64,000 bases of DNA from assembly GCA_017428025.1 (NCBI GenBank), contig JAFRRO010000066.1:2853-66852 (forward strand), in the 5' to 3' direction. The number at the start of each line of letters is the position of its first letter. Position 1 is the stretch's first letter. Shown here one piece after another: positions 8,806 through 55,342 of this stretch. A program made the translations under genes and the position numbers. Below the pieces are notes generated by a model that saw nothing but the letters and a program-made list of their open reading frames with translations, did not search any database and was not told the DNA's origin. This DNA comes from Clostridia bacterium (GTDB taxonomy: Bacteria; Bacillota; Clostridia; Christensenellales; CAG-138).

Positions 8806-10041
8806 ATGGTTAAAGTTATCGGAGTGAAATTCAAAACGAGCGGACGGGTATATTACTTCGATCCGCTGGATCTCAACATCAAGACCGGAGACGGTGTGAT
8901 CGTTGAAACGGCGCGCGGACTGGAATTCGGCGACGTCACGTGCGCGCCGAAAGAGGTGGAGGAGAGCGAGATCGTTGCGCCTCTGAAGCCGGTCGTTCGC
9001 ATTGCGACGGACGAGGACCGGCGCCTGCGCGCGCAGTACGCGGCAAAGGAAAGCGAAGCGTTTGAGATCTGTCTCGAAAAGATCGCGGCGCACCAGCTCG
9101 ACATGAAGCTTGTGGACGTGGAATACACGTTCAACGGCAGCAAGGTGGTCTTTTACTTCACCGCCGACGAGCGCGTGGACTTCCGCGAGCTGGTCAAGGA
9201 CCTTGCGTATTCGCTGAAAACGCGCATCGAACTGCGGCAGATCGGCGTGCGCGACGAGGCAAAGATGCTCGGCGGTATCGGTCCGTGCGGACGTCTGGTG
9301 TGCTGCAAAGCGTTCCTCGACGATTTCCGTCCCGTGTCGATCAAGATGGCGAAGGAGCAGAACCTTTCATTGAGCCCGACGAAGATTTCCGGACTCTGCG
9401 GGAGGCTAATGTGCTGCCTGCAGTATGAGCAGAGCGCGTACGAAGCGATCCGCAGCCGGATGCCGAAGCCCGGCAAAGAGGTCAATACGGTCGACGGTCC
9501 CGGCATCGTGGTCGAGAACAATGCGATCACCGAGCGCACCAAGGTCAAGCTGACGATGGAGGACGGCTCGATCGACATCCGCGAGTATCCGTATACGCAT
9601 CTGTCCGCGCCGGGCGAACCGCTGCCGGACGAGGCGATCGCCGCAAAGAAGGCGGAAGCGGCGAAGGAGAAGGACTCGAACGCGCAGTTCCGCAGGGAAG
9701 CGGCAAACAACACCCGCCGCAACCAGAGACCTGCCGCGAAGCCGCAGAACACGCAGAAGCAGCAGGACAAGTCGGAACCGCAAAAGAAGCAGGATAAGCC
9801 GGAACAGCAGAAGAAGCAGGACAGGCCGGAGCAGCAGAAAAAGCAGGATAAGCCGGAGTCGCAGAAGAACGACAATCGCGAGCAGAAGAAGCAGAACGCG
9901 CCGCAGAAACCCGTTGAAAAGACGGACCGCGCGCCTGCCGCGGAGGAAGGGAAGCCCGAACAAAAGAAGAATAACAACCGCCGCCGTTCCAGACGGCGCA
10001 AGCCGAATCGTGCTCCGAACGCACCGGAGCAGAACAACTGA
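8806..10041 (+). CDS. ricT: PSP1-domain protein RicT/YaaT with a long K/Q/E/P-rich C-terminal tail
   Basis: N-terminus VIGVKFKTSGRVYYFDP..., PSP1 Cys motifs GPCGRLVCC and CGRLMCCLQYE, and conserved position after holB. Confidence 0.85.
   Translation: MVKVIGVKFKTSGRVYYFDPLDLNIKTGDGVIVETARGLEFGDVTCAPKEVEESEIVAPLKPVVRIATDEDRRLRAQYAAKESEAFEICLEKIAAHQLDMKLVDVEYTFNGSKVVFYFTADERVDFRELVKDLAYSLKTRIELRQIGVRDEAKMLGGIGPCGRLVCCKAFLDDFRPVSIKMAKEQNLSLSPTKISGLCGRLMCCLQYEQSAYEAIRSRMPKPGKEVNTVDGPGIVVENNAITERTKVKLTMEDGSIDIREYPYTHLSAPGEPLPDEAIAAKKAEAAKEKDSNAQFRREAANNTRRNQRPAAKPQNTQKQQDKSEPQKKQDKPEQQKKQDRPEQQKKQDKPESQKNDNREQKKQNAPQKPVEKTDRAPAAEEGKPEQKKNNNRRRSRRRKPNRAPNAPEQNN
9757..9864 (+). repeat. Four tandem 27-nt coding repeats (K-K-Q-D-K-P-E-Q-Q units)
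   Basis: Units at 9757-9783, 9784-9810, 9811-9837 and 9838-9864, based on AAGAAGCAGGATAAGCCGGAACAGCAG and its variants. Confidence 0.8.
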
Positions 10042-11879: not shown

Positions 11880-12430
11880 TTCTGGAGACCGAACGGCTGA
11901 TCCTGCGCCGCTGGAACGAGGACGACGCGGCGGATCTGTACCGGTATGCAAGCGATCCGGACGTCGGACCGGTCGCCGGATGGCCGCCGCATCAGAGCGT
12001 TGCCGAAAGCCGCGCGGTCATCGTCGGCGTGTTCTGCGGCGCGGAGGCGTATGCCGTGTGCCTGAAATCCGACAATAAGCCGATCGGCGCGATCGAACTG
12101 AAGCTGAACGGACACACCGACATGACGGATCGCGACGACGAATGCGAGCTCGGCTACTGGCTCGGCAAGCCGTTCTGGGGACGGGGCATCATGCCGGAGG
12201 CTGTCCGTGAAATGCTGCGGCACGCGTTCTGCGATCTCGGGATGCAGAAGGTCTGGTGCGGCTACTATGACGGAAACGACAAATCGAAGCGCGTACAGGA
12301 GAAATGCGGGTTCCGCTATCAATGGACGACGTACGGGCTCGATGTGCCGCTGATGAACGAGAAACGGACGGGGCACGTCAACTGCATCACCGTCGGACAA
12401 TGGCGGGCGGAGCGGGAAAAAATATATTGA
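11876..12430 (+). CDS. GNAT-family N-acetyltransferase (RimJ/RimL-like)
   Basis: Translation MILETERLILRRWNEDDAADLYRYASDP... with WGRGIMPEA in the acetyl-CoA motif region. ATGA overlap with the preceding gene. Confidence 0.8.
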   Translation: MILETERLILRRWNEDDAADLYRYASDPDVGPVAGWPPHQSVAESRAVIVGVFCGAEAYAVCLKSDNKPIGAIELKLNGHTDMTDRDDECELGYWLGKPFWGRGIMPEAVREMLRHAFCDLGMQKVWCGYYDGNDKSKRVQEKCGFRYQWTTYGLDVPLMNEKRTGHVNCITVGQWRAEREKIY

Positions 12431-15430: not shown

Positions 15431-16666
15431 TTATCGGATCCGGCCGCTTGCTTCGAGCGCCGCAAGATCCGGCTCGCACAGGAACGGTTCGCCCGCGGCT
15501 TTGAGCGCGTTGTTGACGTCCTTGAGACCGCTGCCGGTCGAAATGACGGTTACGGTTTCGTCGGGACGGATCAGGCCCTCCTTGACGGCGCGCACCACGC
15601 CTGCAGTGGCGGTCACGCCCGCGGGCTCGCCGAATACGCCCTCGGAACGTCCCAAGAGCCGCATCGCGGCAAGAATTTCGTCGTCGGTGACGGCGATCCA
15701 GCGTCCGCCGCTGTTCTTGACCGCGCGCAGCGCCTTCTTCGGGTTTCTCGGCACGCCGACGGCGATGGAGTCGGCCAGCGTGTTTTCGGGCGTCGGCACG
15801 AGATCGCGGTTGTTGTTCGCCGCGTCGACAAACGGGCAGCAGCCGGTGGATTGCACGCCGAGGATCTTCGGGATGCGGTCGATCATGCCGAGTTCATAGA
15901 GATCACGGAAGCCGTTGTACACGCCGCCGATCGTGCAGCCGTCGCCGACGGACACCGCAACCCAGTCGGTCGGTTCCCAACGGAGCTGTTCCGCGATCTC
16001 CAGCGCGACGGTCTTTTTGCCCTCGGTCAGGATCGGATTGATGCCCGCGTTGCGGTTGTAAAAGCCCCATTTTTCGATCGCGGCTTTACTGAGCTCAAAG
16101 GTCTGGCGATAGTCGCCCCTGACCGAAATGACGTTCGCTCCGAAGATCAGAAGCTGCGCAACCTTGCCCTTCGGCGCGCGCTCCGGCACAAAGATCACGG
16201 TTTTCAGCCCCATGCGCGCCGCGTTGCCCGCGCAGGAGCTTGCCGCGTTGCCGGTGGAGGAGCAGCAGATCGTATCATAGCCGAGTTCGATCGCCTTGGC
16301 GACCGCCACGCCGCTTGCGCGGTCTTTCAAGGATGCGGTCGGATTGATGCCGTCGTCCTTGATGTAAAGCTTTTTGAGCCCCAGCTCGTCGCCGAGCCGC
16401 AGACTCTCATACAGCGGCGTCCAGCCGATGCGCAAAAACTTCGAAAGCCCTTCGCCCTTCAGAGGCATCAACGCCTTATAGCGCCACATGCTGTTGTCGC
16501 GATCCGCCTTCAGCGTGTCGCGGTTCAGTTCTTTTTTGACCTCGTCGTAGTCAAACAGAATATCCAGAATGCCCTTTTCGCCGCAGGCGGGGCAGGTCAT
16601 CAGCTCCGGTCCGTAGGGGTATTCCTTGCCGCAGAGGGTGCAGCGATAGCCGTAAACGCGTCTCAT
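15431..16666 (-). CDS. Threonine-synthase-like PLP-dependent enzyme with an N-terminal zinc ribbon
   Basis: CTLCGKEY...CPACG ribbon. The PLP lysine context is TASLKDRASG. Fold-type II (Trp-synthase beta-like) throughout. Confidence 0.7.
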   Translation of the reverse strand: MRRVYGYRCTLCGKEYPYGPELMTCPACGEKGILDILFDYDEVKKELNRDTLKADRDNSMWRYKALMPLKGEGLSKFLRIGWTPLYESLRLGDELGLKKLYIKDDGINPTASLKDRASGVAVAKAIELGYDTICCSSTGNAASSCAGNAARMGLKTVIFVPERAPKGKVAQLLIFGANVISVRGDYRQTFELSKAAIEKWGFYNRNAGINPILTEGKKTVALEIAEQLRWEPTDWVAVSVGDGCTIGGVYNGFRDLYELGMIDRIPKILGVQSTGCCPFVDAANNNRDLVPTPENTLADSIAVGVPRNPKKALRAVKNSGGRWIAVTDDEILAAMRLLGRSEGVFGEPAGVTATAGVVRAVKEGLIRPDETVTVISTGSGLKDVNNALKAAGEPFLCEPDLAALEASGRIR

Positions 16667-23753: not shown

Positions 23754-23762
23754 TGATTCATG

Positions 23763-23786
23763 AGACCGCCTTCGGGCGGTCTTTTG
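23763..23786 (+). terminator. Rho-independent terminator
   Basis: Stem GACCGCC / GGCGGTC with loop TTCG, followed by TTTT. Confidence 0.8.
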
Positions 23787-23806
23787 TTTGTTTTGTTTTC
23801 ACAGAA

Positions 23807-23860
23807 ATTACAATTTCATTACATTCGCGCCCCCGCATCCTGTGCGAAATATGGTACACT
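23807..23860 (+). promoter_or_regulatory. Response-regulator box ATTACAATTTCATTACA plus -10 (promoter of the two-component operon)
   Basis: Direct TTACA repeats 11 bp apart (23807-23823), 31 nt, then TGgTACACT extended -10 (23852-23860). Confidence 0.6.
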
Positions 23861-23882
23861 ATAGGGAGAATCGGAGGTTTCT

Positions 23883-24545
23883 ATGAAAAACAGGATTTTG
23901 GTGGTGGAGGACGACGCGGCAATCCGCGACGCGGTGCTTCTGAATCTGCAGTTTGCGGGCTACGAGACGCGCGCGTTCGAGGACGGTGCCGATGCAGCAA
24001 ACGCGCTCGAAGACGATCACGCGTTCGATCTTGCGCTCCTTGACATCATGCTGCCGGGCATGGACGGATTCGAGCTGTTTTCCGTGATGGAGCATTATGG
24101 CATTCCGGTGATCTACATGACCGCAAAGACGGATTCGGCGTCCGAGATCAAGGGACTGAGGGACGGCGCGGAGGATTATATCGTCAAGCCGTTCGATCCG
24201 TTGACGCTGATGGTGCGCATCGAAAAGGTCCTGAAGCGCATCGGTAAGTGGAACGCCGTCTTTCGCGTGCGCGACGTCGTGGTCAATATCGAGACGCATA
24301 CGGTCACAAAGGGCGGGGAGCCGGTCGTGCTGCAGCCGCTCGAATTCGACGTGCTGGTGATGCTGCTGCGGCATAAGAACATGACCGTCTCGCGCGAACG
24401 GCTGCTGAACGAGGTGTGGGGATTCGATTATCTCGGCGAGACGCGCATGGTCGACGTCAAAATCTCCGCGCTGCGCAAAAAGCTCGATCTGGAGGACGCG
24501 ATCCGCGCGATCCCGAAGCTCGGCTACCGGTTGGAGGATCGATAG
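23883..24545 (+). CDS. OmpR/PhoB-family response regulator
   Basis: Receiver domain (VVEDD...DLALLDIMLPGMDG...KTD) and a winged-helix output domain (...KLGYRLE). Confidence 0.9.
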   Translation: MKNRILVVEDDAAIRDAVLLNLQFAGYETRAFEDGADAANALEDDHAFDLALLDIMLPGMDGFELFSVMEHYGIPVIYMTAKTDSASEIKGLRDGAEDYIVKPFDPLTLMVRIEKVLKRIGKWNAVFRVRDVVVNIETHTVTKGGEPVVLQPLEFDVLVMLLRHKNMTVSRERLLNEVWGFDYLGETRMVDVKISALRKKLDLEDAIRAIPKLGYRLEDR

Positions 24546-25928
24546 ATGAAGCTGCATCAACGCATCACGCTGCTCGTTTCGATCGTGCTTGCGGCGGTGA
24601 TCCTTGCGGTATCGCTGTCGCTGCTGCTCTATTCGCGTCAGACGATTCTTGCCATGACGACCGAACAGGTCGAGCGCAAGGAACAGACGTTGCGAAAGTC
24701 CTTCAGTGAGATGGCGCGCTATTATGCGAAAGCCGACGACAGCGAAATCGTGCACGCCTCGCTGATCGATTACTGCTTCTCGCGCTTTGCCGACCAGACC
24801 GCCGTGCTGATGCACGACGGCGAACCGGTCTATACCGGCGTTTCGATCGATCCGTCCGCCTATCTCAAAAAGGACGACACATACCAAACGGAATACGACT
24901 CCGTCGCCTGCAAGGTACACGGGAAAAACCTGTTGATCGCGGGCGGCATGACGAGCATCGGCGCAGAGAACTATACCGTCTATATCGTGGAGGACGTCAC
25001 GGACATCCACACCCGCATCCGGCGCATGTCGCTGATCTATGCGGGCGTCAGCATCCTTGCGCTCTGCATCGGCGCGGGCGCGGTCATGCTGCTGGTCAAG
25101 CGCAGCACGAAACCGGTTGCGGCGCTCTCCGAAGCCGCAAAGGAGATCGCCGACGGCGCGTACGAAAAGCGCGTGGACGTGCAGACCGGAGACGAGATCG
25201 GCGCGCTCGGGCAGGACTTCAACCGCATGGCGGATGCGGTCGAAACAAAGATTTCGGAGCTCGAGGAACGCAACGAGCGGCAGCGCCTGTTCATCGGAGG
25301 CGTCACGCACGAGTTCAAAACCCCGATGACCGGTCTTCTGCTGCATACCGGGCTGTTGCGGCGCGCAAATCTCACCGAGGACGAGCGCGACGCGTCGCTT
25401 GCTCACATCGAAATGCAGACGGCGTGGCTCGAACGGCTGACGCAGAACCTTCTGAAGCTCTTTACCTCCGACGAGGCGATCGAACGCAGCGAAGTCGATC
25501 TGCCCGCGCTGTTTGAAACGGTCAGAGAGGGCGTCGAACCGAAGCTCATCGAGCGCGGCGCGTCGCTTTCGATCGCGTGCGAAACGCAGACGCTTCTCTG
25601 CAATCCCGATCTGATCCGTTCGCTTCTCACCAATCTCATCGTCAACGCCGCAAACGCCTACGACGCGAACGCGCCGGAAAAGCCGATCGCGCTGACCGTC
25701 CGCGGACAAACGATCTCGGTTGCCGATCATGGCAGAGGCATCCCGAAGGAGGCGCAAAGCCGCATCTTCGAGCCGTTCTATCGCGTGGACAAGAGCCGCA
25801 GCAAAAAGCAGGGCGGCAGCGGGCTCGGGCTTGCGCTCGTCAAGGCGATCGCCGATGCGCACGGCGCGACTATCACGGTCGAAAGCGAGCCGGACGTCGG
25901 CACAACGGTTTCGGTGACCTTTCCGTGA
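24546..25928 (+). CDS. Sensor histidine kinase (2 TM, extracytoplasmic domain, HAMP, HisKA, HATPase_c)
   Basis: H-box GGVTHEFKTPMT, N-box NLIVNAANAY, G1 DHGRGI and G2 GGSGLGLA. The start abuts the response regulator stop. Confidence 0.9.
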   Translation: MKLHQRITLLVSIVLAAVILAVSLSLLLYSRQTILAMTTEQVERKEQTLRKSFSEMARYYAKADDSEIVHASLIDYCFSRFADQTAVLMHDGEPVYTGVSIDPSAYLKKDDTYQTEYDSVACKVHGKNLLIAGGMTSIGAENYTVYIVEDVTDIHTRIRRMSLIYAGVSILALCIGAGAVMLLVKRSTKPVAALSEAAKEIADGAYEKRVDVQTGDEIGALGQDFNRMADAVETKISELEERNERQRLFIGGVTHEFKTPMTGLLLHTGLLRRANLTEDERDASLAHIEMQTAWLERLTQNLLKLFTSDEAIERSEVDLPALFETVREGVEPKLIERGASLSIACETQTLLCNPDLIRSLLTNLIVNAANAYDANAPEKPIALTVRGQTISVADHGRGIPKEAQSRIFEPFYRVDKSRSKKQGGSGLGLALVKAIADAHGATITVESEPDVGTTVSVTFP

Positions 25929-25938
25929 TTTCCCGGCG

Positions 25939-26058
25939 CCCCTGTGTAAGGGGAGCTGTCGAGGGTACCGAGACTGAGGGGTTGTAAATCATACAATATT
26001 GTCAAAAACAACCCTTCCGTCTCGCTTCGCGATCCACCTTCCCTTGCACAGGGAAGGC
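25939..26058. repeat. About 120-bp imperfect palindromic element (REP/MITE-like)
   Basis: Arms CCCCTGTGTAAGGGGAGCTG...GAGACTGAGGGGTTGT and ACAACCCTTCCGTCTC...CCTTCCCTTGCACAGGGAAGG match at about 34 of 47 positions (by eye). They flank an AT-rich loop, and each tip forms its own small hairpin. Confidence 0.65.
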
Positions 26059-26081
26059 AAGATTTTGTGAAAACCGGTTTC

Positions 26082-26135
26082 ATTACAATTTCATTACAGT
26101 TTGGTGCGGATTTTTGCACGTTCGCGCGGTATGCT
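26082..26135 (+). promoter_or_regulatory. Identical response-regulator box ATTACAATTTCATTACA plus -10 (promoter of the lipoprotein array)
   Basis: 17 of 17 identity with 23807-23823, 31 nt, then TATGCT (26130-26135). Confidence 0.6.
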
Positions 26136-26163: not shown

Positions 26164-27600
26164 ATGAAAAAGCATGTGATCGTGATCATTCTTGCCGCGC
26201 TTCTGCTTTGCGCCTGCGTACCGACGCCGGACGAGGAGCCGGTGCTGCCGAAGAATCAGGACCTGATGATCCAAAAGGGCGAAGCGACGCAGGCGCCGGA
26301 ACAGCCCTATACCCCGCCGGAGGCGCCGGAACGGTTTGTTTATGACTTTGCGGACGGCACATGGACGGTTCACGCCGATGCGCCGATTATCGTTCCGGAC
26401 GTCCCGATGCCGATGGTTTGGGTGCGCTCGCAGGGCATTTCGCAGGAGATGCTGTATCGATTGTTCAAACTGTTGGGAAACGGTGAAACCTTTTATCAGG
26501 CAAACTATGAATATGTCAGCACCAAGTCGGAAATTGCAGAGAGAATCCAGCGCATGATGAATCGACTTGAGGATGGAAGCTACAAGGATTCCGACCTTTC
26601 CGAGGAGGAATGGAAAGCGGCCATCGAGGAATTGAAAAAGCAGTATCAGACGGCGCCGAAGGAAGTCAATCGCGAACCGCAGGAAAGCGACGGTACGTAT
26701 CAGCTAATGAAAGGCGGCGAGTCCGGAACCGAGTGCTTATATCTGGAAGCAAGGAATGAACAGCGCTCAATTTCTGCTGTCGCAGCATTCAAAGCGGACG
26801 AAGGCGGCTCATTGTTCTGCTATGCGCGGCGTTTGGAAACAGATGGCCGCAGCTATGATTACTATTGGACAAACGCAAGAAAGGTGGACGCAGCGAGCGA
26901 ACTGCCGGGCGGGCTGTCTTATGCGGACGCCGTCGTTCAACTGAACGAGGTGCTTGATACGATCGGCGAACCTTTTGAAATCGAAAGCGTATATCTGATC
27001 GATGACGACTCAAACGGAATGGTTGACGGAGATTCCTCATCGGCAGAGCATTATGCGCTGTGCTTTGCCTGCCGTCGCCTTGTCAACGGTGCGCCGACGG
27101 TCTGCGATGTACCCGGCACAAGCAATACGAATGCGCTTTTTTCGATTCCGTGGGAACAGGAGAGCTTACGTGTCATCATCGATTCGATGGGGATTGCAAA
27201 CATCGGATGGATTGAACCGTTGACGCTTCTTGATACGGTTTCCGAATCGACAAATCTTTTGCCGTTCTCCGAAATCCAGAATATTGCGGAAAAGATGCTG
27301 CCGATTATGTACGGGCAAAAGACGGGACATGATTTTATTCAATCACTCGATACGCAGATCACAAGCGTTCGGTTGGAACTGATTCGTGTGCGTGAACAGA
27401 ACAATACCAAGCAGTTGAAAGGCATCCTGATTCCTGTATGGACTTTTTACGGGACGAGCGTTGTAACAGACAAGGAAGGATATTCCTCCTATTCCGACTA
27501 TGGCATGGGCGGCGGCAACGACAACTACGAAGGCGATCAAATCCTTCTCTGCATCAACGCCATCGACGGAACGATCATCGATCCGCTGCTCGGCTATTGA
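26164..27600 (+). CDS. ACVPTP-family lipoprotein, paralogue A (uncharacterised family)
   Basis: Signal peptide MKKHVIVIILAALLLCAC-VPTPDEEP with a lipobox Cys. Conserved LLPFSEIQNIAEKMLPI, ITSVRLELIRV, GILIPVW and C-terminal INAIDGTIIDPLLGY. RBS AAAGGAGG is present. Confidence 0.8.
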   Translation: MKKHVIVIILAALLLCACVPTPDEEPVLPKNQDLMIQKGEATQAPEQPYTPPEAPERFVYDFADGTWTVHADAPIIVPDVPMPMVWVRSQGISQEMLYRLFKLLGNGETFYQANYEYVSTKSEIAERIQRMMNRLEDGSYKDSDLSEEEWKAAIEELKKQYQTAPKEVNREPQESDGTYQLMKGGESGTECLYLEARNEQRSISAVAAFKADEGGSLFCYARRLETDGRSYDYYWTNARKVDAASELPGGLSYADAVVQLNEVLDTIGEPFEIESVYLIDDDSNGMVDGDSSSAEHYALCFACRRLVNGAPTVCDVPGTSNTNALFSIPWEQESLRVIIDSMGIANIGWIEPLTLLDTVSESTNLLPFSEIQNIAEKMLPIMYGQKTGHDFIQSLDTQITSVRLELIRVREQNNTKQLKGILIPVWTFYGTSVVTDKEGYSSYSDYGMGGGNDNYEGDQILLCINAIDGTIIDPLLGY

Positions 27601-27615
27601 AGGGAGGACACACAT

Positions 27616-29052
27616 ATGAAAAAACACATTTTCATCATTCTGCTTGCAGCGTTGCTTCTGCTTTGCGCCTGCGTACCGACGCCGGACGAGGAGCCGGTGC
27701 TGCCGAAGAATCAGGACCTGATGATCCAAAAGGGCGAAGCGACGCAGGCGCCGGAACAGCCCTACACGCCGCCCGAAGTGCCGGAACGGTTCGTTTATGA
27801 TTTTGCGGACGACAACTGGACGCTGCACGCCGACGCGCAAATCGTCGTGCCAGACGTGCCGCTGCCGATGGTCTGGGTACGCTCGCAGGGAATCTCGCAG
27901 GAGCTTCTCTATCGCCTGTTCGAGTATTTCGGCAACGGCGAGTCCTATCAGATTCCGGACATGAATCCGATCCAAACCAAGGCGGAGATCGAGGAGCTGA
28001 TTCAGCACATGGTCGATCAGCTCGAGGACGGCAGCTACAAGGAGTCCGACCTCACCGAGGAGGAATGGAACGCCGCCATTGAGGAATTGAAAAAGAAGTA
28101 CCGCGCCGCGCCGGAGGAGGCGCCCGAAAAGGATCTGAACACCGACGGCACGTATATTCTTCTGAAAAGCAACATGTACGATACGGAACGACTGTATCTG
28201 GAGGCATACAACTATCAGCGTACGATCGGCGCGACATCCTATTTCAAAGCCGACGGTTCCGGCTCAAACTTCCACTATTACCGGCATTTTTACAACGAAT
28301 CGCGCAGGGATTTCACGATGGCAAACGCCGTTCCGGTCAACGCTGCGAGTGAGCTGCCCGAAGAGCTCTCCTATGCGGATGCAGCCGCGAAGATCAAGGA
28401 GGTGTTCGATCTCATCGGCGAGCCGTTCGAGATCGCAAGCGTGTATCTGATCGACGACGCCGCAAACGGTTCGGTCGACGGCGAAGTTCGCAAGGCTGAG
28501 CATTACGCGCTGTGCTTTATCTGCCGCCGCACGGTCAACGGCGCGCCGACGGTCACAAATATTACGGGCTCTATGCGCATGGACGATCTTTTTGTAATCC
28601 CTTGGGAGCAGGAGAGCTTCCGCGCGATTCTCGACAGCGAGGGCTTCGTTTCGCTCCGTTGGGAGGAACCGCTGACGATGCTCGACACCGTTTCCGAATC
28701 GACCAATCTGCTGCCGTTTTCGGAGATTCAAAACATTGCGGAAAAGATGCTGCCGATCCTGTACGGAAAGAATAACGGGCATGACAGCCTCCGGTCGGTC
28801 GATACGCAGATAACGAGCGTGCGGCTCGAGCTGATCCGCGTGCGCGAGCAGAACAACGCAAAACAATTGAAGGGCATTCTGATTCCGGTATGGGCGTTCT
28901 ACGGCACCTGCCATGCGGTCGAGGACGACGACTATTCCCTGTATCTCCATTACGGTTTTGGCGGTGGCAGCGACGGCTACAAGGGCGACGAGATTTTGCT
29001 CTGCGTCAACGCGATCGACGGCACGATCATCGATCCGCTGCTCGGCTATTGA
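27616..29052 (+). CDS. ACVPTP-family lipoprotein, paralogue B
   Basis: MKKHIFIILLAALLLLCAC-VPTPDEEP, with the same C-terminal motifs. Lies 15 nt after A, with RBS AGGGAGG. Confidence 0.8.
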   Translation: MKKHIFIILLAALLLLCACVPTPDEEPVLPKNQDLMIQKGEATQAPEQPYTPPEVPERFVYDFADDNWTLHADAQIVVPDVPLPMVWVRSQGISQELLYRLFEYFGNGESYQIPDMNPIQTKAEIEELIQHMVDQLEDGSYKESDLTEEEWNAAIEELKKKYRAAPEEAPEKDLNTDGTYILLKSNMYDTERLYLEAYNYQRTIGATSYFKADGSGSNFHYYRHFYNESRRDFTMANAVPVNAASELPEELSYADAAAKIKEVFDLIGEPFEIASVYLIDDAANGSVDGEVRKAEHYALCFICRRTVNGAPTVTNITGSMRMDDLFVIPWEQESFRAILDSEGFVSLRWEEPLTMLDTVSESTNLLPFSEIQNIAEKMLPILYGKNNGHDSLRSVDTQITSVRLELIRVREQNNAKQLKGILIPVWAFYGTCHAVEDDDYSLYLHYGFGGGSDGYKGDEILLCVNAIDGTIIDPLLGY

Positions 29053-29067
29053 AGGGAGGACAGGCAT

Positions 29068-30630
29068 ATGAAAAAACACGGTTTCATCCTTTTGCTTACA
29101 GCGTTGCTGCTGATCTGCGCCTGCGTACCGACGCCGGAGAAAGAGATCGTGGTGCAGAAGGACTTCGACCACATGATCGAAAAGGCGAAGGAAACACCGG
29201 TTTCGGATACCGTTGTGCTTGAGGACGGTACGCAGGGATCCGGCGTACCGACGGCGTCGCCGCAGAACACGGACGCTCCGCGCTATGCGCATATCACCGA
29301 ATCGTTCACCGGGCGGACGGACGCATTTCGGGTGGAGATCGACGCCGACGTGATCGTGCCGGACGGACCGCTGCCGATCGTTCGCGTCAAACCCGATGAA
29401 TTCAACGCGGAGAAAGCGCAGCCGTACTTTGACGCCCTGTGCAGCGGCGAAGACTATTACCCGCGCGAGGAGTTGGAGACCAAGGAGAATCTCGAACGGC
29501 AGATTGCCGAGATGCAGGCGGAGGTGGACGCGGGACTGCCCTCGATGGATCGCGACGGACTGTCCGAAAAGGACGTGCAAAAGGAAATCAAGAATTGGAA
29601 GTCGCAGATCAAAGAGCTTCAGGAGCGCTGGAAGGTCGCAAAGGACAAGCCGGAAAACCCGATGCGCGTTCTTGCAGACTACGATTGGAGCAAGGTGCCG
29701 TCCTACTATCCGCTGGGCGTCTGGACGACCGACGAACAGGCGCAGTTTACGTTCCGACTGGACGGCGAGCAGGAGCAGAACGGGCACAAGATCCGGTTCG
29801 TCCAAAGCTCCGTCCTGTTCGAGGATGCGCGCAAGGAGCCAAAGACCAAGGCGCGGCATCAATTTGAGTATTACAGGGATGTAACCGGACAAACGACGAT
29901 CCCGACCGGAACGAAGCTTACAAAAACGCCGCTTGAGGCACAGACCGAAGCCGAACAGCTGATCCAAAGGATCGGTGCAAAGGATATGGCGGTCGATCGC
30001 GTGTACCTGATGCGCGAATGCGTGCTGAACGAAGGAAACGAGGGCTATTGCATCAATTACCTGCTGCCGGAGGATTACGAGTATCAGTATCTCTATGAGG
30101 TTCGCTTCTGCCGTACGGTCAACGGCATCCCGGTGGTGAAGCCGACTTTCTTTGCGTCATCCTCTAACAACAGCGAGAACGGCGCCTATGCGCCGAGCTG
30201 GGAGTATGAGGAGCTGTATGTGCGCGTCAGCAGTGACGGCGTTTGCGAACTGTATCATCTGGCGCCGATCGAGACGGTCACTACGCTGGTGGAGGACGCG
30301 AAGCTGCTGCCGTTCTCCGATATTCTGGATATCGCGAAAAAGATGCTGCCGATTTTGCACGAGGACCAGATCGGCAGCGGCAATCGCGTTGAGTTTCGCA
30401 TCGATCGCATCACGCTTTCCTTGCAACGCATTGCGGAGCAGGACAACCTCGAATACGGTCTGCTGGTGCCGACGTGGAACTTCTGGGGCGTGGACCTTCG
30501 TATCGGCGAGGACGGCGTGCCGCACACGTACCTTTGCGGCGTCTTCAGCGCCGGAACCTGCGGCTATCTGCCCTTGCTTTCGATCAACGCGATCGACGGC
30601 ACCATCATCGATGCAACAAAGGGGTACTGA
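29068..30630 (+). CDS. ACVPTP-family lipoprotein, paralogue C
   Basis: MKKHGFILLLTALLLICAC-VPTPEKEIVVQKD, then LLPFSDILDIAKKMLPI and C-terminal INAIDGTIIDATKGY. Lies 15 nt after B. Confidence 0.8.
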   Translation: MKKHGFILLLTALLLICACVPTPEKEIVVQKDFDHMIEKAKETPVSDTVVLEDGTQGSGVPTASPQNTDAPRYAHITESFTGRTDAFRVEIDADVIVPDGPLPIVRVKPDEFNAEKAQPYFDALCSGEDYYPREELETKENLERQIAEMQAEVDAGLPSMDRDGLSEKDVQKEIKNWKSQIKELQERWKVAKDKPENPMRVLADYDWSKVPSYYPLGVWTTDEQAQFTFRLDGEQEQNGHKIRFVQSSVLFEDARKEPKTKARHQFEYYRDVTGQTTIPTGTKLTKTPLEAQTEAEQLIQRIGAKDMAVDRVYLMRECVLNEGNEGYCINYLLPEDYEYQYLYEVRFCRTVNGIPVVKPTFFASSSNNSENGAYAPSWEYEELYVRVSSDGVCELYHLAPIETVTTLVEDAKLLPFSDILDIAKKMLPILHEDQIGSGNRVEFRIDRITLSLQRIAEQDNLEYGLLVPTWNFWGVDLRIGEDGVPHTYLCGVFSAGTCGYLPLLSINAIDGTIIDATKGY

Positions 30631-30633
30631 GCC

Positions 30634-32052
30634 ATGAAAAAACATATTTTCATCCTTTTGCTTGCATCCCTGCTGCTGCTTGCCGCCTGCGTACCGACGC
30701 CGGAGGAACCGATCGTGATCGGAAAGGACCAGAGCGCCATGATCGAAAAGGCGGAGGCGGGCGGAGAATATGCCGCGTCGCCGAGCGATCCGGCAGCCGG
30801 CACGGACTGGGCAGCGCGGCTCGGCACGCCCGCGCGATACGAAACGTCGCTCGTGAGCGCGGGCGGCAAGCTGACCGTCGAGGTGAACGCGCCGATCGAA
30901 CTGCCCGACGTCGAACTGCCGGTCGTGAAGATCGAGCCGTATCTGTTCACCGACGCGGATGTGCGCCGCTATGTATCGGCGCTTCTGGGCGACGATCCGC
31001 AGTGTGTCGACGATGCGTGGGACGAATCCCTGCGCACCAAGAAATCGTATGAAAAGGAAATCCTGACCTGCAGGGATGCTTTGGAACACTGGAACGAATA
31101 CGGCAGTATCGTCTATGACAATTACGAAACGCGCGGGGCGTTTGAACAGCACCTGCAGGACCTGATGCAAAAGGCGGCGAACGCGCCGGAAAAACCGGAG
31201 ACGCATGCGCCGACCTACGAGTGGCAGAAATGGAACGTCTGGACGGAGGCGGGAAAGCAGGAGACGGAGGACAGCTATCTGACACTGCTCACGGTCAACG
31301 AGGACCTTTCGCAGTCGAGACTGGATATCAGCCGCAGTTCGGAGTTCGGGCGCTGCGACGTGCGCTACAATCGCGACGCATACGAAAACCTCCCGCTGGC
31401 GGTCGATTCGCGGACATGGCAAAACGAGCTTTCGATCGGCGAGCGGGACGCCCGTCATACGGCCGAGACCGTCCTGAACCAAATGGGACTCGATCATCTG
31501 GTTTGCGTCCTTGCAAAGCCGACGCGCATCTATCCGGGCGACGTCGCGCGGGACGGCAATTCCTATCATGCCTGCTGGGTGCTCGTCTTTATGCCCGCGG
31601 TCAACGGCGCGGCGGCGACCTATACCGAACAGACGCGCACCGAGCCGAGCGATTACGCCCGCGAATGGGAAACCGAATACTGCGCGGTGTGGGTGGACGA
31701 ACAAGGCGTTGCGGGGCTGAACTACCGGAATCCCTGCGCGATTCGCGAGGTCACAGTGCCCGTGGCGACGCTGCTGCCGTTCGACAAGATCAAAGAGATT
31801 TTCGAGAAGATGGTGCTGATCGTGGACAACAATGCGGATCCCGGCGGCTATGAACTGCATTATCGCATCACATCGATTCGCCTGGGATTGGTCAGCATCC
31901 CGGAACAGTATGGTACGGGCGGGCTTCTGGTGCCCGCGTGGGATTTCATGGGCGTGCTCGAATCGGCGGATTCTCAAAAATACGCGACCGACGAAGCCCG
32001 CTCGTTCCTGACGATCAATGCCGTCGACGGCAGCATCATTGTGCGCGGATGA
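30634..32052 (+). CDS. ACVPTP-family lipoprotein, paralogue D
   Basis: MKKHIFILLLASLLLLAAC-VPTPEEPIVIGKDQ, C-terminal INAVDGSIIVRG. Lies 3 nt after C. Confidence 0.8.
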   Translation: MKKHIFILLLASLLLLAACVPTPEEPIVIGKDQSAMIEKAEAGGEYAASPSDPAAGTDWAARLGTPARYETSLVSAGGKLTVEVNAPIELPDVELPVVKIEPYLFTDADVRRYVSALLGDDPQCVDDAWDESLRTKKSYEKEILTCRDALEHWNEYGSIVYDNYETRGAFEQHLQDLMQKAANAPEKPETHAPTYEWQKWNVWTEAGKQETEDSYLTLLTVNEDLSQSRLDISRSSEFGRCDVRYNRDAYENLPLAVDSRTWQNELSIGERDARHTAETVLNQMGLDHLVCVLAKPTRIYPGDVARDGNSYHACWVLVFMPAVNGAAATYTEQTRTEPSDYAREWETEYCAVWVDEQGVAGLNYRNPCAIREVTVPVATLLPFDKIKEIFEKMVLIVDNNADPGGYELHYRITSIRLGLVSIPEQYGTGGLLVPAWDFMGVLESADSQKYATDEARSFLTINAVDGSIIVRG

Positions 32053-32070: not shown

Positions 32071-33504
32071 GTGAAAAAACAGACTGGTTTGATATTGCTG
32101 CTTGCGGCGTTTCTGCTGCTTTGCGCCTGTGTGCCGACGCCGAAGGAACCCGTCGTGATCGGCAAGGATCAGAGCGCAATGGTCGAAAAGGCGCAGGAAA
32201 AGCCCGTCTATGCGCAAACGGAAGGAACGGTCGACTGGCTCGAACGGCTCGGCGCGCCCGCACGGTACACGGCGACGCTGACGAGCATCGGCGGGCGGCT
32301 GAAGGTGGAAGCGGACGCGAAGGTGATCGTGCCGGACGGCGAGCTGCCGATCGTGTATGTGACACCCCGCAGCTTTTCGGACGAGGACGCAGAGCGGTTT
32401 ATGAAGGCGCTTTTGGGCGACGATCCGAAATGCCTCCGGCCGGAGGACGAGAACCGTACAAAAGCCATGTACGAACGGCAGATTCTCGAATGGAGCTACG
32501 CGCTCGACCATTGGGAGGAGTACGGCGCCTCGGTCTGGGACATGTACGACACAAAGGAGGAGTTCCGCGAAGCGCTGCAAGGGCTGATGGAAAAGGCGGC
32601 AGACGCGCCGGAAACGCTTGAGACGTTCGACCCTGTTTTCGAATGGGAGCCGATCCTTTGGCAGACCGACGCGGGGCAGAGAGCCTACGGAGATGAGAAT
32701 ATGCACTTTCTGACGCTGAACGCGGACGGAACGAAATCGTCCCTGAGCATCACGAATGGCGCGGACGTTGCGCGCAGCGGCGTTCATTACTGGCGGGACA
32801 GCGAAGGTCTTGCGGATCAGCTGGAGGACGTGGACGGCGGACAGTGGCAGAACGAACTGCAGATTTCGGAGGAGGAGGCCCGCGCCGCTGCGGAAGCGAC
32901 GCTCTCCCAAATGGGGCTCGGTCATCTGGTCTGCGCGTTCGGAAAATTCATCCGCTGCTACCGCATGAACACCGTTCGCGAAGACGCTCCGTACCAATCC
33001 GGCTGGATGCTCGTATATACGCCCGCGGTGAACGGCACGGCGCTGACCTATACGCTCCGGACGGGCGTCGACAACAACGACTACAATCGCCGCTGGCAGT
33101 ATGAACGCTGCTATCTGCTCGTCGACGAAAAGGGCGTGGCGCTGTTGCATTATTACGACGCCTGCACCCTGGACAGCGTCATGGTCGAGGCCTGCACGCT
33201 ACTGCCGTTTGAAAAGATCGTCGAGATCTTTGAGAAGATGGTGCTGATCGTCGACAACGACGCGGATCTGTACGACGTCGACCGCACCTACCGGATCACG
33301 ACGGTCCGCCTCGGTATGACGAGCATTCCGGCAGAAAACGGAAACGGCGGCTTTCTGGTGCCGTGCTGGGACTTCATGGGCGACGAGTACGCCGCGGAGG
33401 AATTCCCGGAAACGTGGAAACGTACGGGCATGACGCAGGACGGCAGCTTTTCGTATCTTACGATCAACGCCATTGACGGCAGCATCATTCAGCGCGGGCA
33501 TTGA
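32071..33504 (+). CDS. ACVPTP-family lipoprotein, paralogue E (GTG start)
   Basis: (V)KKQTGLILLLAAFLLLCAC-VPTPKEPVVIGKDQ, C-terminal INAIDGSIIQRGH. RBS GGAGAAAGG is present. Confidence 0.75.
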   Translation: MKKQTGLILLLAAFLLLCACVPTPKEPVVIGKDQSAMVEKAQEKPVYAQTEGTVDWLERLGAPARYTATLTSIGGRLKVEADAKVIVPDGELPIVYVTPRSFSDEDAERFMKALLGDDPKCLRPEDENRTKAMYERQILEWSYALDHWEEYGASVWDMYDTKEEFREALQGLMEKAADAPETLETFDPVFEWEPILWQTDAGQRAYGDENMHFLTLNADGTKSSLSITNGADVARSGVHYWRDSEGLADQLEDVDGGQWQNELQISEEEARAAAEATLSQMGLGHLVCAFGKFIRCYRMNTVREDAPYQSGWMLVYTPAVNGTALTYTLRTGVDNNDYNRRWQYERCYLLVDEKGVALLHYYDACTLDSVMVEACTLLPFEKIVEIFEKMVLIVDNDADLYDVDRTYRITTVRLGMTSIPAENGNGGFLVPCWDFMGDEYAAEEFPETWKRTGMTQDGSFSYLTINAIDGSIIQRGH

Positions 33505-33580
33505 GGAACAGGAAGAAAGGGAAAACCATGCAAAAATACATGAGGAACAGGAAGAAAGGGAAAACCATGCAAAAATACAT
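33503..33580 (+). repeat. Perfect 39-bp tandem duplication covering the RBS and start codon of paralogue F
   Basis: GAGGAACAGGAAGAAAGGGAAAACCATGCAAAAATACAT occurs at 33503-33541 and again at 33542-33580. Confidence 0.9.
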
Positions 33581-35051
33581 ATGGATGATATTGCTGCTTA
33601 CGGCGTTACTGCTGCTTTGCGCCTGCGTACCGACGCCGGAGAATCCGATCGTAGTCGGGAAGGATCAGACGGAAATGCTCAATAAAGCAAAGGAAACGCT
33701 CGCACCGGAAAAACTGGAACAAAGCTTGCGGGAACGGCTGAACGTCCCGGATCGGTATACATATTCTTATCATAAAGGCGACTTGACGATCGACGCGGAT
33801 GCGGAGATCGTGGTGCCGGATGGAGAACTTCCGATCGTCCGCGTGTTTCCGAAGGAGTTCGATCAGGCGACGGTGACAAAGCTTTGGAACGTGCTGATCG
33901 GCGATATGCCGATGCAGATTCAGCAGGAAGGAATGACGAAAGCCGAGATCGCGGAGGAACTCGAAGCGATGCTCGCCGCGCTCGACGCAAACGAGCCGCA
34001 GGCGTTCGGATTTGAAACCATCGAGCAATTGGAGAAGCGGATCACACTGTATCAGAAAAAGTATAACGAGGCGCCGGATGTTTTGGATGGCGAACCGGCG
34101 GACGGTACGCTGTATACGGAATCGGAGTATGACAACAGCGGCAACGTCACAGCATCGCATACTTGCATTCGCGCGCAATCCAAAGAGGCGGGCATCCGTT
34201 TCATTGTGAGCAATGGATATGACAACGATGCACCGGTCAAAACAATCCTGTATGACGATATCGGCAGGGAGATCGGCTATTCCGTTCGCAGCGTCGAGCG
34301 CAAATCGTCCTTCGTGTTCATAAAGGACAACGATCCGCATGTCGGCTGCTATGTGTGGGATGACGAACTGCGGCCTTCGGACGGCATTCCCGAAAAAGCC
34401 GCGCATTCGATCGGCATCCTTCCGCAAAATGCGTGGGATGCGGCGCAAAAACTGTTGGAGGATATGGACCTTTCCGACGCGTACCGACCGCAGCGCATCT
34501 TTTTGATCACAGACGTCGGTCCGGATAATATCCCGCGCGAGTACGCATACCGCATCGTTTGTACGCATGTTGTTAACGGTGTGCAAACGCTGATGATCGG
34601 CAACGTCGGCGACGAGGGGGCGGATGACCCATTTGTGCCGTCGTGGCAGTTTGAGCGGTTTTATATCGACGTCGGCGATGACGGCGTATATTGCATACAG
34701 CATGAAACACCGCTTGCCGTCGGCGACACGGTATTGGCACAGACGAACCTATTGCCTTTTTCGGAGATACAGGCGATCATCAAAAAGATGCTGCCGATCA
34801 TGTACGAGAACGAAACGGACGATTACGACGGAAAGTCATTTGAGAAGCACATCGACCGTGTGGAACTCGGTCTTTGGCGCGTGCGCGAACAGGACCGGAT
34901 CGACCGCGGACTGCTGGTTCCCGTTTGGGCGATTTATGCCATTACCGCGGAAATCGATTCGTACTTCAACTTTGCATGGAGAAGCTATGAACCGATCCTG
35001 CTGATCAACGCGGTCGACGGCAGCGTCATCGATCCACAGCAGGGGTATTGA
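33567..35051 (+). CDS. ACVPTP-family lipoprotein, paralogue F (alternative in-frame start at 33528)
   Basis: MQKYIWMILLLTALLLLCAC-VPTPENPIVVGKDQ, then LLPFSEIQAIIKKMLPI and C-terminal INAVDGSVIDPQQGY. Confidence 0.75.
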   Translation: MQKYIWMILLLTALLLLCACVPTPENPIVVGKDQTEMLNKAKETLAPEKLEQSLRERLNVPDRYTYSYHKGDLTIDADAEIVVPDGELPIVRVFPKEFDQATVTKLWNVLIGDMPMQIQQEGMTKAEIAEELEAMLAALDANEPQAFGFETIEQLEKRITLYQKKYNEAPDVLDGEPADGTLYTESEYDNSGNVTASHTCIRAQSKEAGIRFIVSNGYDNDAPVKTILYDDIGREIGYSVRSVERKSSFVFIKDNDPHVGCYVWDDELRPSDGIPEKAAHSIGILPQNAWDAAQKLLEDMDLSDAYRPQRIFLITDVGPDNIPREYAYRIVCTHVVNGVQTLMIGNVGDEGADDPFVPSWQFERFYIDVGDDGVYCIQHETPLAVGDTVLAQTNLLPFSEIQAIIKKMLPIMYENETDDYDGKSFEKHIDRVELGLWRVREQDRIDRGLLVPVWAIYAITAEIDSYFNFAWRSYEPILLINAVDGSVIDPQQGY

Positions 35052-42349: not shown

Positions 42350-42549
42350 ATCCGCAAGCGTCAGGGGGCGGACGGCACGAAACCAAGGGCGGAGGAAGGC
42401 AAATAAGCGCTGATTTGCCGATAAATCGCGGCCGATTCCGGCAGTTTACGCAATTTTTACAGAAATCCGGCAATTTTTTTGTCGGTTTTTTTGCATCTTG
42501 CGGTACGATATGATATAATAACGTTGATTCTTAGATTGGGGACGAATTC

Positions 42550-49136: not shown

Positions 49137-49190
49137 TTTACGAGTTTCTTACAACTCGGACATATCTGATTCAAAGAAACGTGATACGAT
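49137..49190 (+). promoter_or_regulatory. Response-regulator-box-like TTTACGAGTTTCTTACA plus extended -10
   Basis: TTACG-N6-TTACA (49137-49153), 31 nt, then TGaTACGAT (49182-49190). The geometry matches the boxes at 23807 and 26082. Confidence 0.45.
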
Positions 49191-49223: not shown

Positions 49224-50624
49224 ATGGAAAAACAGAAAAAGAAACAGTACAGGGGCCTGCGCGTCGTCGCGTCGATCCTTGCAAACCTTACGGGCATTCT
49301 GACGGCGAATTACATCGTGTTCTACATCCTCGATCATTTCAACCCGGGGCTGCACTTTGTGATTCATTCGACCTTCTTTCTGACGGAACACCTGCATCTG
49401 ATCATTGCGGGACTGACGCTGATCACGGGGATTCTGTACCTGATCCTGTTCCGACGCGGCGCGTTCAGACGGTATCGCTTCCAAAAGAAACGCCTGATCG
49501 GAATTCTGGTCGCCGACGTGCTGCTGGCGGGCGCGTTTGCCATGACGGTCAACACCTATACGTTCGACTGGCTGCACATCCGCGAGATCAAACAGGATCA
49601 GATCGTTGCGCTGGCGACGCTGCCGCCGAAGGAGGCGCAGACGCCGGACACGAACGAAGATACCGTCGTCATGCCGGAAACGCCGCAGCCGACGGCACAC
49701 GCCCAAACGCAGGCGGCGGACGATACGGCGCCCGCGCCGACCGATACGCCGGAACCGACGCAGGAACCCACGCCGACGCCGATCCCGGGACTGTTGGGCG
49801 ATCGGTTCAAGGAGAAGTTCTCCGACGGCGCGCCGGTCGTTGAGGAGCCGAACACGAGCGAAACGCTGCCGGACGGCACGGTGAAAACGCTGATCTACGT
49901 CTATCGCGGGACCAAGTCCGCGGTCGAGCTCTATCATTATCAAAAGGGCAAGCTCGAATACCAGATCGCCGACGTCTATGTGCGTGAGATTGAAAAGCTC
50001 ACGACCGAGAGCGTCACCAATCAGGGCTATGCCAAGATGCTCTACGAGTTCGCGCGCGAGCTCAACGCACGCATCGCGATCAATTCGGACTACTTCACGA
50101 CCAACGCGATCAACGAAGGTCTGATCATTCGCAACGGAAAGCTGCTGCAATCCAAGGTATGCAAGAATTCGGACCTCTGCGTGGTCTATCAGGACGGCAT
50201 GGTGCGCTGCTTCGACTGCAAGAAGGAGAAGATCGACAACGACGCGATCATCGCCTCCTATCCGTATCATGCGTTCTATTTCGGACCGTCGCTGCTCGAC
50301 GAGAACGGCAACGCCAAGGAGAAGTTCAACTCCACCGTCGGCGCGCTGAATCCGCGTACCGCGTTCGGCTACTATGAGCCGGGACACTATGCGTTTATCA
50401 GCATCCTCGGCACGCGCTCCATGAAGGACATCAACGGGCACGGGCTCGGCAACGGGAAGTCGCCGGGCATGACGTTCACGGAGATGTCGGCGCTGTGCGC
50501 ATCTATGGGCATGAAAGCCGCGTACAACCTCGACGGCGGGCAATCCTCCGGCATGTACTGGAACGAAAAGCTGTTCGGGCACAACAACCGCATCACGGGC
50601 GACGTGCTCGCGATCATCGACTGA
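49224..50624 (+). CDS. Membrane-anchored phosphodiester glycosidase (NAGPA/DUF2233) family protein
   Basis: 3-4 N-terminal TM segments, a T/P/E-rich linker, and a C-terminal domain with IAINSDYF...PRTAFGY...AYNLDGGQSS. Confidence 0.75.
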   Translation: MEKQKKKQYRGLRVVASILANLTGILTANYIVFYILDHFNPGLHFVIHSTFFLTEHLHLIIAGLTLITGILYLILFRRGAFRRYRFQKKRLIGILVADVLLAGAFAMTVNTYTFDWLHIREIKQDQIVALATLPPKEAQTPDTNEDTVVMPETPQPTAHAQTQAADDTAPAPTDTPEPTQEPTPTPIPGLLGDRFKEKFSDGAPVVEEPNTSETLPDGTVKTLIYVYRGTKSAVELYHYQKGKLEYQIADVYVREIEKLTTESVTNQGYAKMLYEFARELNARIAINSDYFTTNAINEGLIIRNGKLLQSKVCKNSDLCVVYQDGMVRCFDCKKEKIDNDAIIASYPYHAFYFGPSLLDENGNAKEKFNSTVGALNPRTAFGYYEPGHYAFISILGTRSMKDINGHGLGNGKSPGMTFTEMSALCASMGMKAAYNLDGGQSSGMYWNEKLFGHNNRITGDVLAIID

Positions 50625-50636
50625 GGAGGGGAGAGC

Positions 50637-50849
50637 ATGAAAAAGCATCTGTTTGCAAAGACCGTCGCCGTTCTGGGCGTGATCGTATCCGCGCTGTATC
50701 TGCTGCTGCTGTTGACGTCGCGGTTCATGGAACTGCCGTTTGAGGTATCGCAGAACGTTCTGTTCGCCGACTGGGCGTTTATCGCCGTGCCGATCCTCGG
50801 CTTCGCTTCGTCGATCGCCCTGCAGATCGCCTCGGTCAGAAATCGCTGA
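50637..50849 (+). CDS. Small hypothetical membrane protein (2 TM)
   Basis: 70-aa ORF starting 13 nt after the preceding stop, with RBS GGAGGGGAG. Confidence 0.5.
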   Translation: MKKHLFAKTVAVLGVIVSALYLLLLLTSRFMELPFEVSQNVLFADWAFIAVPILGFASSIALQIASVRNR

Positions 50850-50898
50850 ACAAGGCAGCATTGCTTTGTGTAACGGAAAATCATTCGGGAGACGCGCT

Positions 50899-53752: not shown

Positions 53753-53753
53753 T

Positions 53754-55287: not shown

Positions 55288-55342
55288 ATTGTACCGCCGG
55301 ACTTGTAACAGAGTCATCACAGAGTTGTAAGAGAGTTGTAAA
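55288..55342 (-). promoter_or_regulatory. Response-regulator-box-like TTTACAACTCTCTTACA plus -10 TACAAT (minus strand)
   Basis: On the minus strand: TTACA-N6-TTACA (plus-strand coordinates 55326-55342), 32 nt, then TACAAT (55288-55293). RBS GGAGG precedes the ATG at 55259. Confidence 0.5.

Follow-up and report, generated by a model that had tools for sequence, protein, structure and literature searches.

Response regulators (RRs) of the OmpR family bind head-to-tail direct repeats as dimers (PMC6222199), and several described systems of this kind can be compared with the element considered here. This element is a 17-bp box, ATTACAATTTCATTACA, which is found twice on the forward strand of a 64,000-nucleotide stretch of a contig from a Clostridia bacterium of the Christensenellales (the whole stretch is called the window below), once in front of a two-component operon encoding an OmpR/PhoB-family RR and a sensor histidine kinase (HK), and once in front of an array of six lipoprotein genes of the DUF6034 family (PF19499). 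We consider it quite probable that the box is the operator of the adjacent RR, through which the phosphorylated RR would activate its own operon together with a regulon of envelope lipoproteins.

In the PhoB/OmpR-type operators (the pho box, and the PhoP boxes of Bacillus subtilis and Salmonella), 11-bp tandem direct repeats lie upstream of promoters that have no good -35 element, the winged-helix Trans_reg_C regulator is encoded beside its kinase and is autoregulated, and sites shift by whole helical turns. All of these features recur here, autoregulation as a prediction. Unlike in these operators, the box in the window ends 31 nt from the -10 hexamer and does not replace the -35 element, the targets are DUF6034 lipoproteins and not phosphate or porin genes, and the RR scores below the NCBIfam cut-offs for PhoB (171 vs. 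296) and OmpR (125 vs. 331). The half-sites presumably also resemble TTAACA repeats of B. subtilis PhoP, a likeness for which the literature search gave nothing citable.

The WalR/VicR (YycF) system of the yycFGHI operon shares with the window the gene order RR, HK and extracytoplasmic accessory proteins, and the box read on its bottom strand is an exact match to TGTWAH-N5-TGTWAH, the consensus given for WalR (PMC4168254). Moreover, one DUF6034 paralogue has weak YycI/PepSY Pfam matches, and a structural model of a DUF6034 protein resembles the PepSY repeats of YpeB. However, both proteins fall far short of being called orthologues (RR 143.7 vs. 340 for YycF; HK 179.5 vs. 725 for WalK, and this over the catalytic half), and the HK has no PAS domain according to Pfam. 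Furthermore, the lipoprotein genes have their own promoter, predicted to be RR-dependent, and are present in six tandem copies in the window array and in up to seven in related loci, while the genomes carry several paralogous modules rather than a single essential Wal system.

The best match of the RR is MtrA (177 bits in NCBIfam; PDB 2gwr at 1e-44, the closest solved RR), and the actinobacterial MtrA-MtrB-LpqB system likewise has the order RR, HK, lipoprotein, with LpqB modulating the kinase (as cited in PMC9210968). Here too the scores stay below the cut-offs (MtrA 177 vs. 300, MtrB 167 vs. 450), the window lipoproteins belong to PF19499, with no LpqB match or detected LpqB relationship, and the Clostridia are a different phylum. 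Finally, RR_1586 of Clostridioides difficile is a clostridial OmpR-family RR of orphan function with a directly repeated 11-nt unit and a predicted autoregulatory site, yet its half-site is DRTTAAG, it is reported to be a repressor that binds partly independently of phosphorylation, and its regulon concerns sporulation and germination (PMC6222199). When the RR and HK were compared with the NCBIfam equivalog cut-offs, every named system was missed. The system therefore appears to work like an OmpR/PhoB/WalR-type operator, and it is outside every named system.

Two identical boxes in the window

The two copies of the box (23807-23823 and 26082-26098) are identical at 17 of 17 positions, as the original prediction had stated, and each consists of a direct repeat, ATTACA-ATTTC-ATTACA. 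The two TTACA cores, which had been likened to an OmpR/PhoB binding site, indeed start 11 bp apart in both copies (23808 and 23819; 26083 and 26094), which corresponds to the direct, head-to-tail half-sites with a centre-to-centre distance of about 10-11 bp that are seen in OmpR/PhoB-type operators; the same period is found in the 72 sites described in the next section. At box 2 the repeat unit is longer than at box 1, with TTTCATTACA occurring twice, 11 bp apart. The original prediction also held a chance repeat to be very unlikely, and this view stands, as two matches to the 17-mer with up to three mismatches were found in the whole window against 0.02 expected. It should be kept in mind that the 17/17 identity is partly incidental and overstates the constraint, given that the spacers of the two boxes differ in other genomes; according to the site matrix, constraint falls on A-TTACA, on a T-rich spacer and on A-TTACA again.

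The identity of boxes 1 and 2 is confined to the 17-mer and ends at both of its edges. Repeat searches of the window found no longer or dispersed repeat containing the box and no similarity of the flanks, and a search of the box region against Rfam gave nothing relevant. The box also does not show the distribution of a dispersed repeat, such as a repetitive extragenic palindromic element, a miniature inverted-repeat transposable element or the end of an insertion sequence: there are two copies in 64 kb, and 65 of the 72 related sites lie upstream of RR or DUF6034 starts. The assumption that the box is not part of a dispersed repeat is thus confirmed within this clade.

The gene behind box 1 encodes an RR with both expected domains (PF00072 at 8e-24 and PF00486 at 2e-20), and its PDB matches are all OmpR-family RRs, which makes it suitable as the cognate regulator. 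Box 1 lies exactly 31 nt from the hexamer TACACT (23855-23860), which is directly preceded by TATGg (TGn/TRTG); this may be read as the extended -10 known from Gram-positive bacteria as the '-16 region'. The array gene behind box 2 has its true start at the ATG at 26164, with the ribosome binding site (RBS) AAGGAGG, and is the first of the six DUF6034 genes. Hence the boxes precede the genes that the original prediction named, and the 31 nt that it gave for both promoters were found in both.

The genes of the array are separated by gaps of 3-19 nt or overlap and have no internal box, and therefore they probably form one operon. In a Pfam scan of three array genes (26164-27600, 29068-30630 and 33501-35051) the full-length PF19499 domain was found with 219-252 bits, against a cut-off of 27, while the other three were assigned by a hidden Markov model built from the window's own paralogues. 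Their products have the N-termini of lipoproteins, of the type LLLCAC/VPTP.

Conservation of the box in related loci

For comparison, 79 loci were fetched from species-representative genomes via aligned HK homologues. All of them are from uncultured rumen or gut Clostridia, Christensenellales or Oscillospiraceae, and in nearly every one the genes are ordered RR, HK and then one to seven DUF6034 genes; some carry two or three such modules in tandem. In these loci and the window together (1.175 Mb, both strands) there are 72 exact matches to TTACA-N6-TTACA, whereas about 0.75 would be expected from an estimate based on base composition. Most of these (65/72) lie on the same strand and at most 200 nt upstream of either an RR start (33) or a DUF6034 start (32). 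Several of the remaining seven are also promoter-proximal, standing ahead of the opening gene in an operon with DUF6034 as its last gene.

In three loci (L012, 14743-21380; L003, 13669 onward; L004, 7395 onward), an operon of this kind has a TTACA box in front of it, with 31 nt between the box and TATGAT or TACGAT; its genes encode a large membrane protein, an ABC ATPase, a CARDB-domain protein, a homologue of the lipoprotein at 53754-55259 of the window, and a DUF6034 protein. The window has only the last two genes of this operon type, behind site 4 (see below).

As footprints, 12 orthologous RR promoters were aligned, and likewise 12 DUF6034 promoters (HK about 70% identical). Nearly all invariant columns fall in the cores of the box, in the -10 block or in the RBS, and the flanks diverge. 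In the RR promoters, the 22 nt from the box to the -10 block are unconserved. In DUF6034 promoters, what separates the box from the -10 includes a third unit that is conserved, nTTTgrTGnnGnTTTT. The spacer within the box is itself variable among orthologues (ATTTCA, GTTTGA, TTTTGA, ACTTCA and others).

The distance from the box to the best -10-like hexamer was taken for 69 unique sites, and is 31-33 nt in 54 of them, 20-22 nt in seven and 42 nt in three. With the -10 hexamers read from the sequence, these distances step by one helical turn (about 11 bp), as is expected of a site that acts from a fixed face of the helix.

Two further observations concern the search motif and its surroundings. 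In a metagenome scan for TTCATTACANNTTCATTACA, nine of the 126 matches listed precede DUF6034 open reading frames (ORFs) and most lie in unrelated AT-rich, microsatellite or tandem-repeat DNA; the scan thus supplies extra examples, yet it is no clean specificity test, and the word is not intrinsically special outside the clade. Moreover, at L007 (~16390-16460) and L009 (~12040-12110), four to six 11-bp units like TGTGACAACTC form arrays shortly before an additional TTACA-type box and a DUF6034 gene; such an array may serve as an operator for several dimers, or a different regulator may bind there.

Covariation of half-sites and regulators

Distant modules use other half-sites with the same 11-bp phase, namely GGTAA(T/C), (G)ATAAC and TAACA. 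Modules were assigned to a class by a simple classifier, and those with a classifiable repeat in both promoters were counted. In all 36 such modules the RR promoter and the DUF6034 promoter carry the same variant (23 TTAC, 12 GTAA and one ATAAC), and modules of different class can stand side by side on one contig (L003, L027, L033, and L018 with three modules).

The class is tracked by RR residues 186 and 193 (window numbering), which fall within GETRMVDVKIS, in or next to the recognition helix. The residue pair E/K goes with TTAC (26/26), D/R with GTAA (15/15), G/H with ATAAC (3/3) and E/H with TTAC (6/6). The motif GD(I/V)RTVDV of GGTAA-class relatives is similar to the WalR sequence. Because the class changes are concordant between the promoters and follow the helix of the local RR, it is the local RR that is indicated as the binding protein.

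Several paralogous modules can occur in one genome or contig (L018, L003, L027 and L033, and also L007 and L053, which come from one metagenome-assembled genome), and each has its own half-site variant (TTACA, TAACA/ATAAC or GGTAA) in both promoters and the matching recognition-helix signature. By reading of the sequences, the box in GGTAA-class promoters lies some 22 nt from the -10.

Further sites in the window

With up to one mismatch, TTACA-N6-TTACA has eight matches in the window (0.64 expected), and two of these, at 49138-49153 (+) and 55341-55326 (-), are additional promoter-proximal sites. When sites in other genomes were made into a weight matrix and a threshold of 12 bits was applied, only four places in the window were picked out (26083, 23808, 55341 on the reverse strand, and 49138), plus an overlapping shifted match at 23797. 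The four sites share their geometry: each has a start codon no more than about 100 nt away, all have the same orientation, and the distance to a -10-like hexamer is 31-32 nt; for site 4 this hexamer is TACAAT (55293-55288), at 32 nt. Three of these promoters drive DUF6034 genes and one drives the two-component system. The outlying DUF6034 genes (50740-52305 and 52397-53752) match the PF19499 profile over a partial stretch, with 120-125 bits. A homologue of the NAGPA gene, by which the conservation of site 3 could be judged, was not found in the fetched loci.

An alpha/beta-hydrolase gene (55371-56192, +) is divergent from the lipoprotein operon of site 4 and starts about 30 nt from that site, and it could be co-regulated via the shared short intergenic region. 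The look-alike at 42446-42461 (TTACGCAATTTTTACA), upstream of a 789-aa ORF, was not counted: its geometry is different, it is below the matrix threshold, and 29 nt further downstream there is a canonical TTGCAT-17-TATAAT promoter. A connection with the regulon is improbable.

A model of regulation and its alternatives

The original prediction proposed autoregulation of the two-component system and direct control of the six-gene array, and at the level of sequence both are supported by conservation, by specificity (65/72), by phasing and by class concordance. More specifically, the kinase would phosphorylate the RR, a dimer of which would bind the two head-to-tail ATTACA half-sites with their 11-bp period. 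If the -10 is set at -12 to -7, the box would lie at about -60 to -44, centred near -52, and the bound RR would recruit or stabilise RNA polymerase at these promoters, which have no -35 element; since the distances from box to -10 are helically phased, activation would proceed from one face of the helix. In RR promoters, the TRTGn extended -10 suggests basal activity plus positive autoregulation of RR and HK. The DUF6034 promoters lack this element and have the additional degenerate unit between box and -10, and because they are without TRTGn, the lipoprotein operons would be dependent on the phosphorylated RR as activator. The same RR would drive the two additional window operons, at 49138 and 55341(-), and the regulon would comprise, besides other envelope proteins, DUF6034 lipoproteins that are extracytoplasmic and PepSY-like. 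The binding of the box by this particular RR, the sign of its effect, and the exact -10 and transcription start are all predicted from the sequence.

Several points weigh against this model. The end of the box is 31 nt from the -10, further upstream than in the classic arrangement in which PhoB replaces the -35 element, and this gap implies activation at a distance or via the third, degenerate unit. Since the box, when reverse-complemented, agrees perfectly with a WalR-type consensus, it could in principle be used by another RR. The covariation (36/36 modules) stems from few independent clades or events, and the counts overstate its statistical weight. The -10 of the RR promoter is ambiguous, as an overlapping TATGGT (23850-23855), 26 nt from the box, can be read as a -10 as well; TACACT is favoured since TRTGn-TAnAnT recurs in RR promoters of all module classes. 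Lastly, site 3 has a mismatch and a low score (13.9 bits).

Two other readings of the promoters were rejected. TTGATA or TTGGTG after the box, taken as a -35, would stand too far from the -10, at about 21 nt, and this segment is treated as a degenerate third repeat unit; the box as the -35 of an extracytoplasmic function (ECF) sigma factor would imply a spacing of 31 nt, which is far too long.

It is unlikely that the RR, once bound to the box, serves as a repressor or anti-activator or has different effects at the two promoters, with negative autoregulation as a result. Some OmpR-family RRs do repress and some bind independently of phosphorylation (RR_1586, PMC6222199), and the extended -10 of the RR promoter could work without an activator. 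However, the box lies wholly upstream of the -35 position in promoters that have no -35 element, and the DUF6034 -10 hexamers are weak and lack TGn. In addition, the 11-bp phasing of box to -10 (20/31/42 nt) is predicted by activation from one face of the helix, whereas it would be unneeded for steric repression.

We regard it as very unlikely that the box is bound by another, global OmpR-family regulator such as a WalR orthologue, the adjacent RR not being the direct regulator. The bottom strand, TGTAAT-GAAAT-TGTAAT, is what such a regulator would be expected to recognise, as TGTAAT half-sites have been footprinted (PMC4168254), and WalR regulons consist of cell-envelope genes (PMC9210968); the best NCBIfam match of the kinase is WalK, in its catalytic half only. 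The half-sites may be read on either strand, the WalR consensus matching the opposite one. Nevertheless, a single global regulator would not give half-sites that change in both promoters (36/36) and track the recognition helix of the local RR, nor would it account for modules of different class adjoining each other on one contig (L018), and nearly all matches adjoin RR or DUF6034 genes instead of envelope genes at large.

It is highly improbable, and largely refuted by the comparative sequence data, that the box is a repeat without regulatory role (a chance repeat, a leftover from the duplication of a promoter, part of a mobile or dispersed repeat, or itself the sigma-70-like promoter TTCACA-16-TACATT, which a simple promoter scan places over box 1), for although TTCATTACANNTTCATTACA occurs in metagenomes, among the matches listed, mostly in unrelated repetitive or AT-rich DNA, the chance expectation is 0.02, the identity ends at the box edges, neither a longer nor a dispersed repeat was found, conservation between species is seen for the box while its flanks drift, no Rfam family matches the region, the TTCACA/TACATT geometry is missing at the DUF6034 boxes, and the final T of the hexamer is not conserved in orthologues.

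Features of the locus

The elements of the two main promoters, the genes behind them and the two further sites are collected in Table 1.

Table 1. Coordinates of the predicted regulatory elements and of the genes in the window
Feature	Position	Strand	Remarks
Intrinsic terminator (stem-loop and T-run)	23762-23783	+	Terminates the molybdopterin oxidoreductase gene upstream, isolating the RR promoter
Possible third degenerate half-site, TTTCA	23797-23801	+	In 11-bp phase upstream of box 1; within the conserved TTTTCACAGAAA block of RR promoters
Box 1, predicted RR operator of the RR-HK operon	23807-23823	+	ATTACA-ATTTC-ATTACA
TATGg-TACACT, putative TRTGn extended -10	23850-23860	+	Hexamer at 23855-23860; inside block CGAAATATGGTACACT, which orthologues conserve almost completely
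OmpR/PhoB-family response regulator (220 aa)	23883-24545	+	Response_reg and Trans_reg_C; recognition-helix region GETRMVDVKISALRKKL; RBS GGAGG
Sensor histidine kinase (460 aa)	24546-25928	+	Transmembrane segment, extracytoplasmic domain of ~128 aa spanning residues ~30-157, transmembrane segment, HAMP, HisKA, HATPase; topology read from the translation
Long stable hairpin between HK stop and box 2	25940-26055	+	-66.6 kcal/mol, z = -5.8
Box 2, predicted RR operator of the DUF6034 operon	26078-26098	+	TTTCATTACA-A-TTTCATTACA; the 17-mer is 26082-26098
Conserved element 3' of box 2, GTTTGGTGCGGATTTTT	26099-26115	+	Resembles a third degenerate 11-bp unit, with TGrTG replacing TTACA
Putative -10 hexamer TATGCT	26130-26135	+	Exactly 31 nt after box 2; lacks TGn and any recognisable -35
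Six tandem DUF6034 (PF19499) lipoprotein genes	26164-27600, 27616-29052, 29068-30630, 30634-32052, 32071-33504, 33567-35051	+	
Site 3, TTACGAGTTTCTTACA (one mismatch)	49138-49153	+	31 nt upstream of TGa-TACGAT (49185-49190)
Genes behind site 3	49224-52305	+	NAGPA (phosphodiester glycosidase) membrane protein, 49224-50624; DUF6034 lipoprotein, 50899-52305
Site 4, TTACAACTCTC-TTACAACTCTG-TGATGACTCTG-TTACA	55304-55341	-	Four 11-bp units; exact TTACA-N6-TTACA at 55341-55326
Genes behind site 4	52397-55259	-	Lipoprotein with no Pfam match, 55259-53754; DUF6034 lipoprotein, 53752-52397

Some additional features of the window can be mentioned. The hairpin in front of box 2 is single-copy in the window. 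At the same spot in orthologous loci the same element is found in L002, L004 and L009, unrelated hairpin inserts in L001, L005, L006 and L011, and nothing in L003 and L015; it may be a terminator, an insulator or a small mobile hairpin element. At the end of the array, an exact 39-bp tandem duplication (33502-33579, TGAGGAACAGGAAGAAAGGGAAAACCATGCAAAAATACA twice) doubles the RBS and start codon of the sixth DUF6034 gene, leaving two possible in-frame starts, 33528 and 33567. A simple scan for a terminator after this gene found none. Overlapping direct repeats at 9753-9887, with offsets that are multiples of 9 bp (27, 18, 9, 27; GCAGAAGAAGCAGGA(C/T)AAGCCGGA...), lie inside a coding region and probably encode a low-complexity Q/K/P-rich repeat.

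DUF6034 proteins and implications for the family

In the literature searched, no mention of DUF6034 was found. The protein encoded at 30634-32049 was modelled with 62 homologues (predicted local distance difference test, pLDDT, 91.6; predicted template modelling score, pTM, 0.88), and the only significant PDB fold matches of the model are 5coz, an uncharacterised protein of Eubacterium rectale, and 5boi, the PepSY-repeat C-terminal domain of YpeB. A natural fusion, P0227 (681 aa), joins a BlaR1-type Peptidase_M56 domain to a complete DUF6034 domain, and this hints at a role for DUF6034 as a sensing or partner-binding module outside the cytoplasm. From the fold matches, the weak YycI/PepSY Pfam matches and the M56 fusion, the output of the regulon would be extracytoplasmic PepSY-like lipoproteins. 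Another protein, P0082 (487 aa), has HK and DUF6034 Pfam matches together, and this may be a frameshift artefact.

The order RR-HK-DUF6034 resembles that of walRK-yycHI and mtrAB-lpqB, in both of which an extracytoplasmic partner modulates the kinase (PMC9210968); this resemblance is a lead and not a result. Tentatively, and with more doubt than confidence, RR-HK-DUF6034 might be seen by analogy as a self-contained envelope-sensing cassette, in which DUF6034 would be both the output and a partner or modulator of the kinase, closing a feedback loop. Such a cassette would have been repeatedly duplicated in genomes of Christensenellales and Oscillospiraceae, and its operator half-sites (TTACA, GGTAA, ATAAC) and recognition helices would have co-diverged, insulating the paralogous circuits from each other.

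The regulatory principle, an autoregulated two-component system that activates adjacent genes via direct repeats, is already textbook knowledge. What the locus offers is a first regulatory handle on DUF6034, a family amplified in uncultured rumen and gut Clostridia, in the form of an operator, a predicted regulon and a predicted cognate sensor. The paralogous modules, with their covarying operators and helices, also provide a compact natural data set on how the DNA specificity of OmpR-family regulators diverges after duplication.

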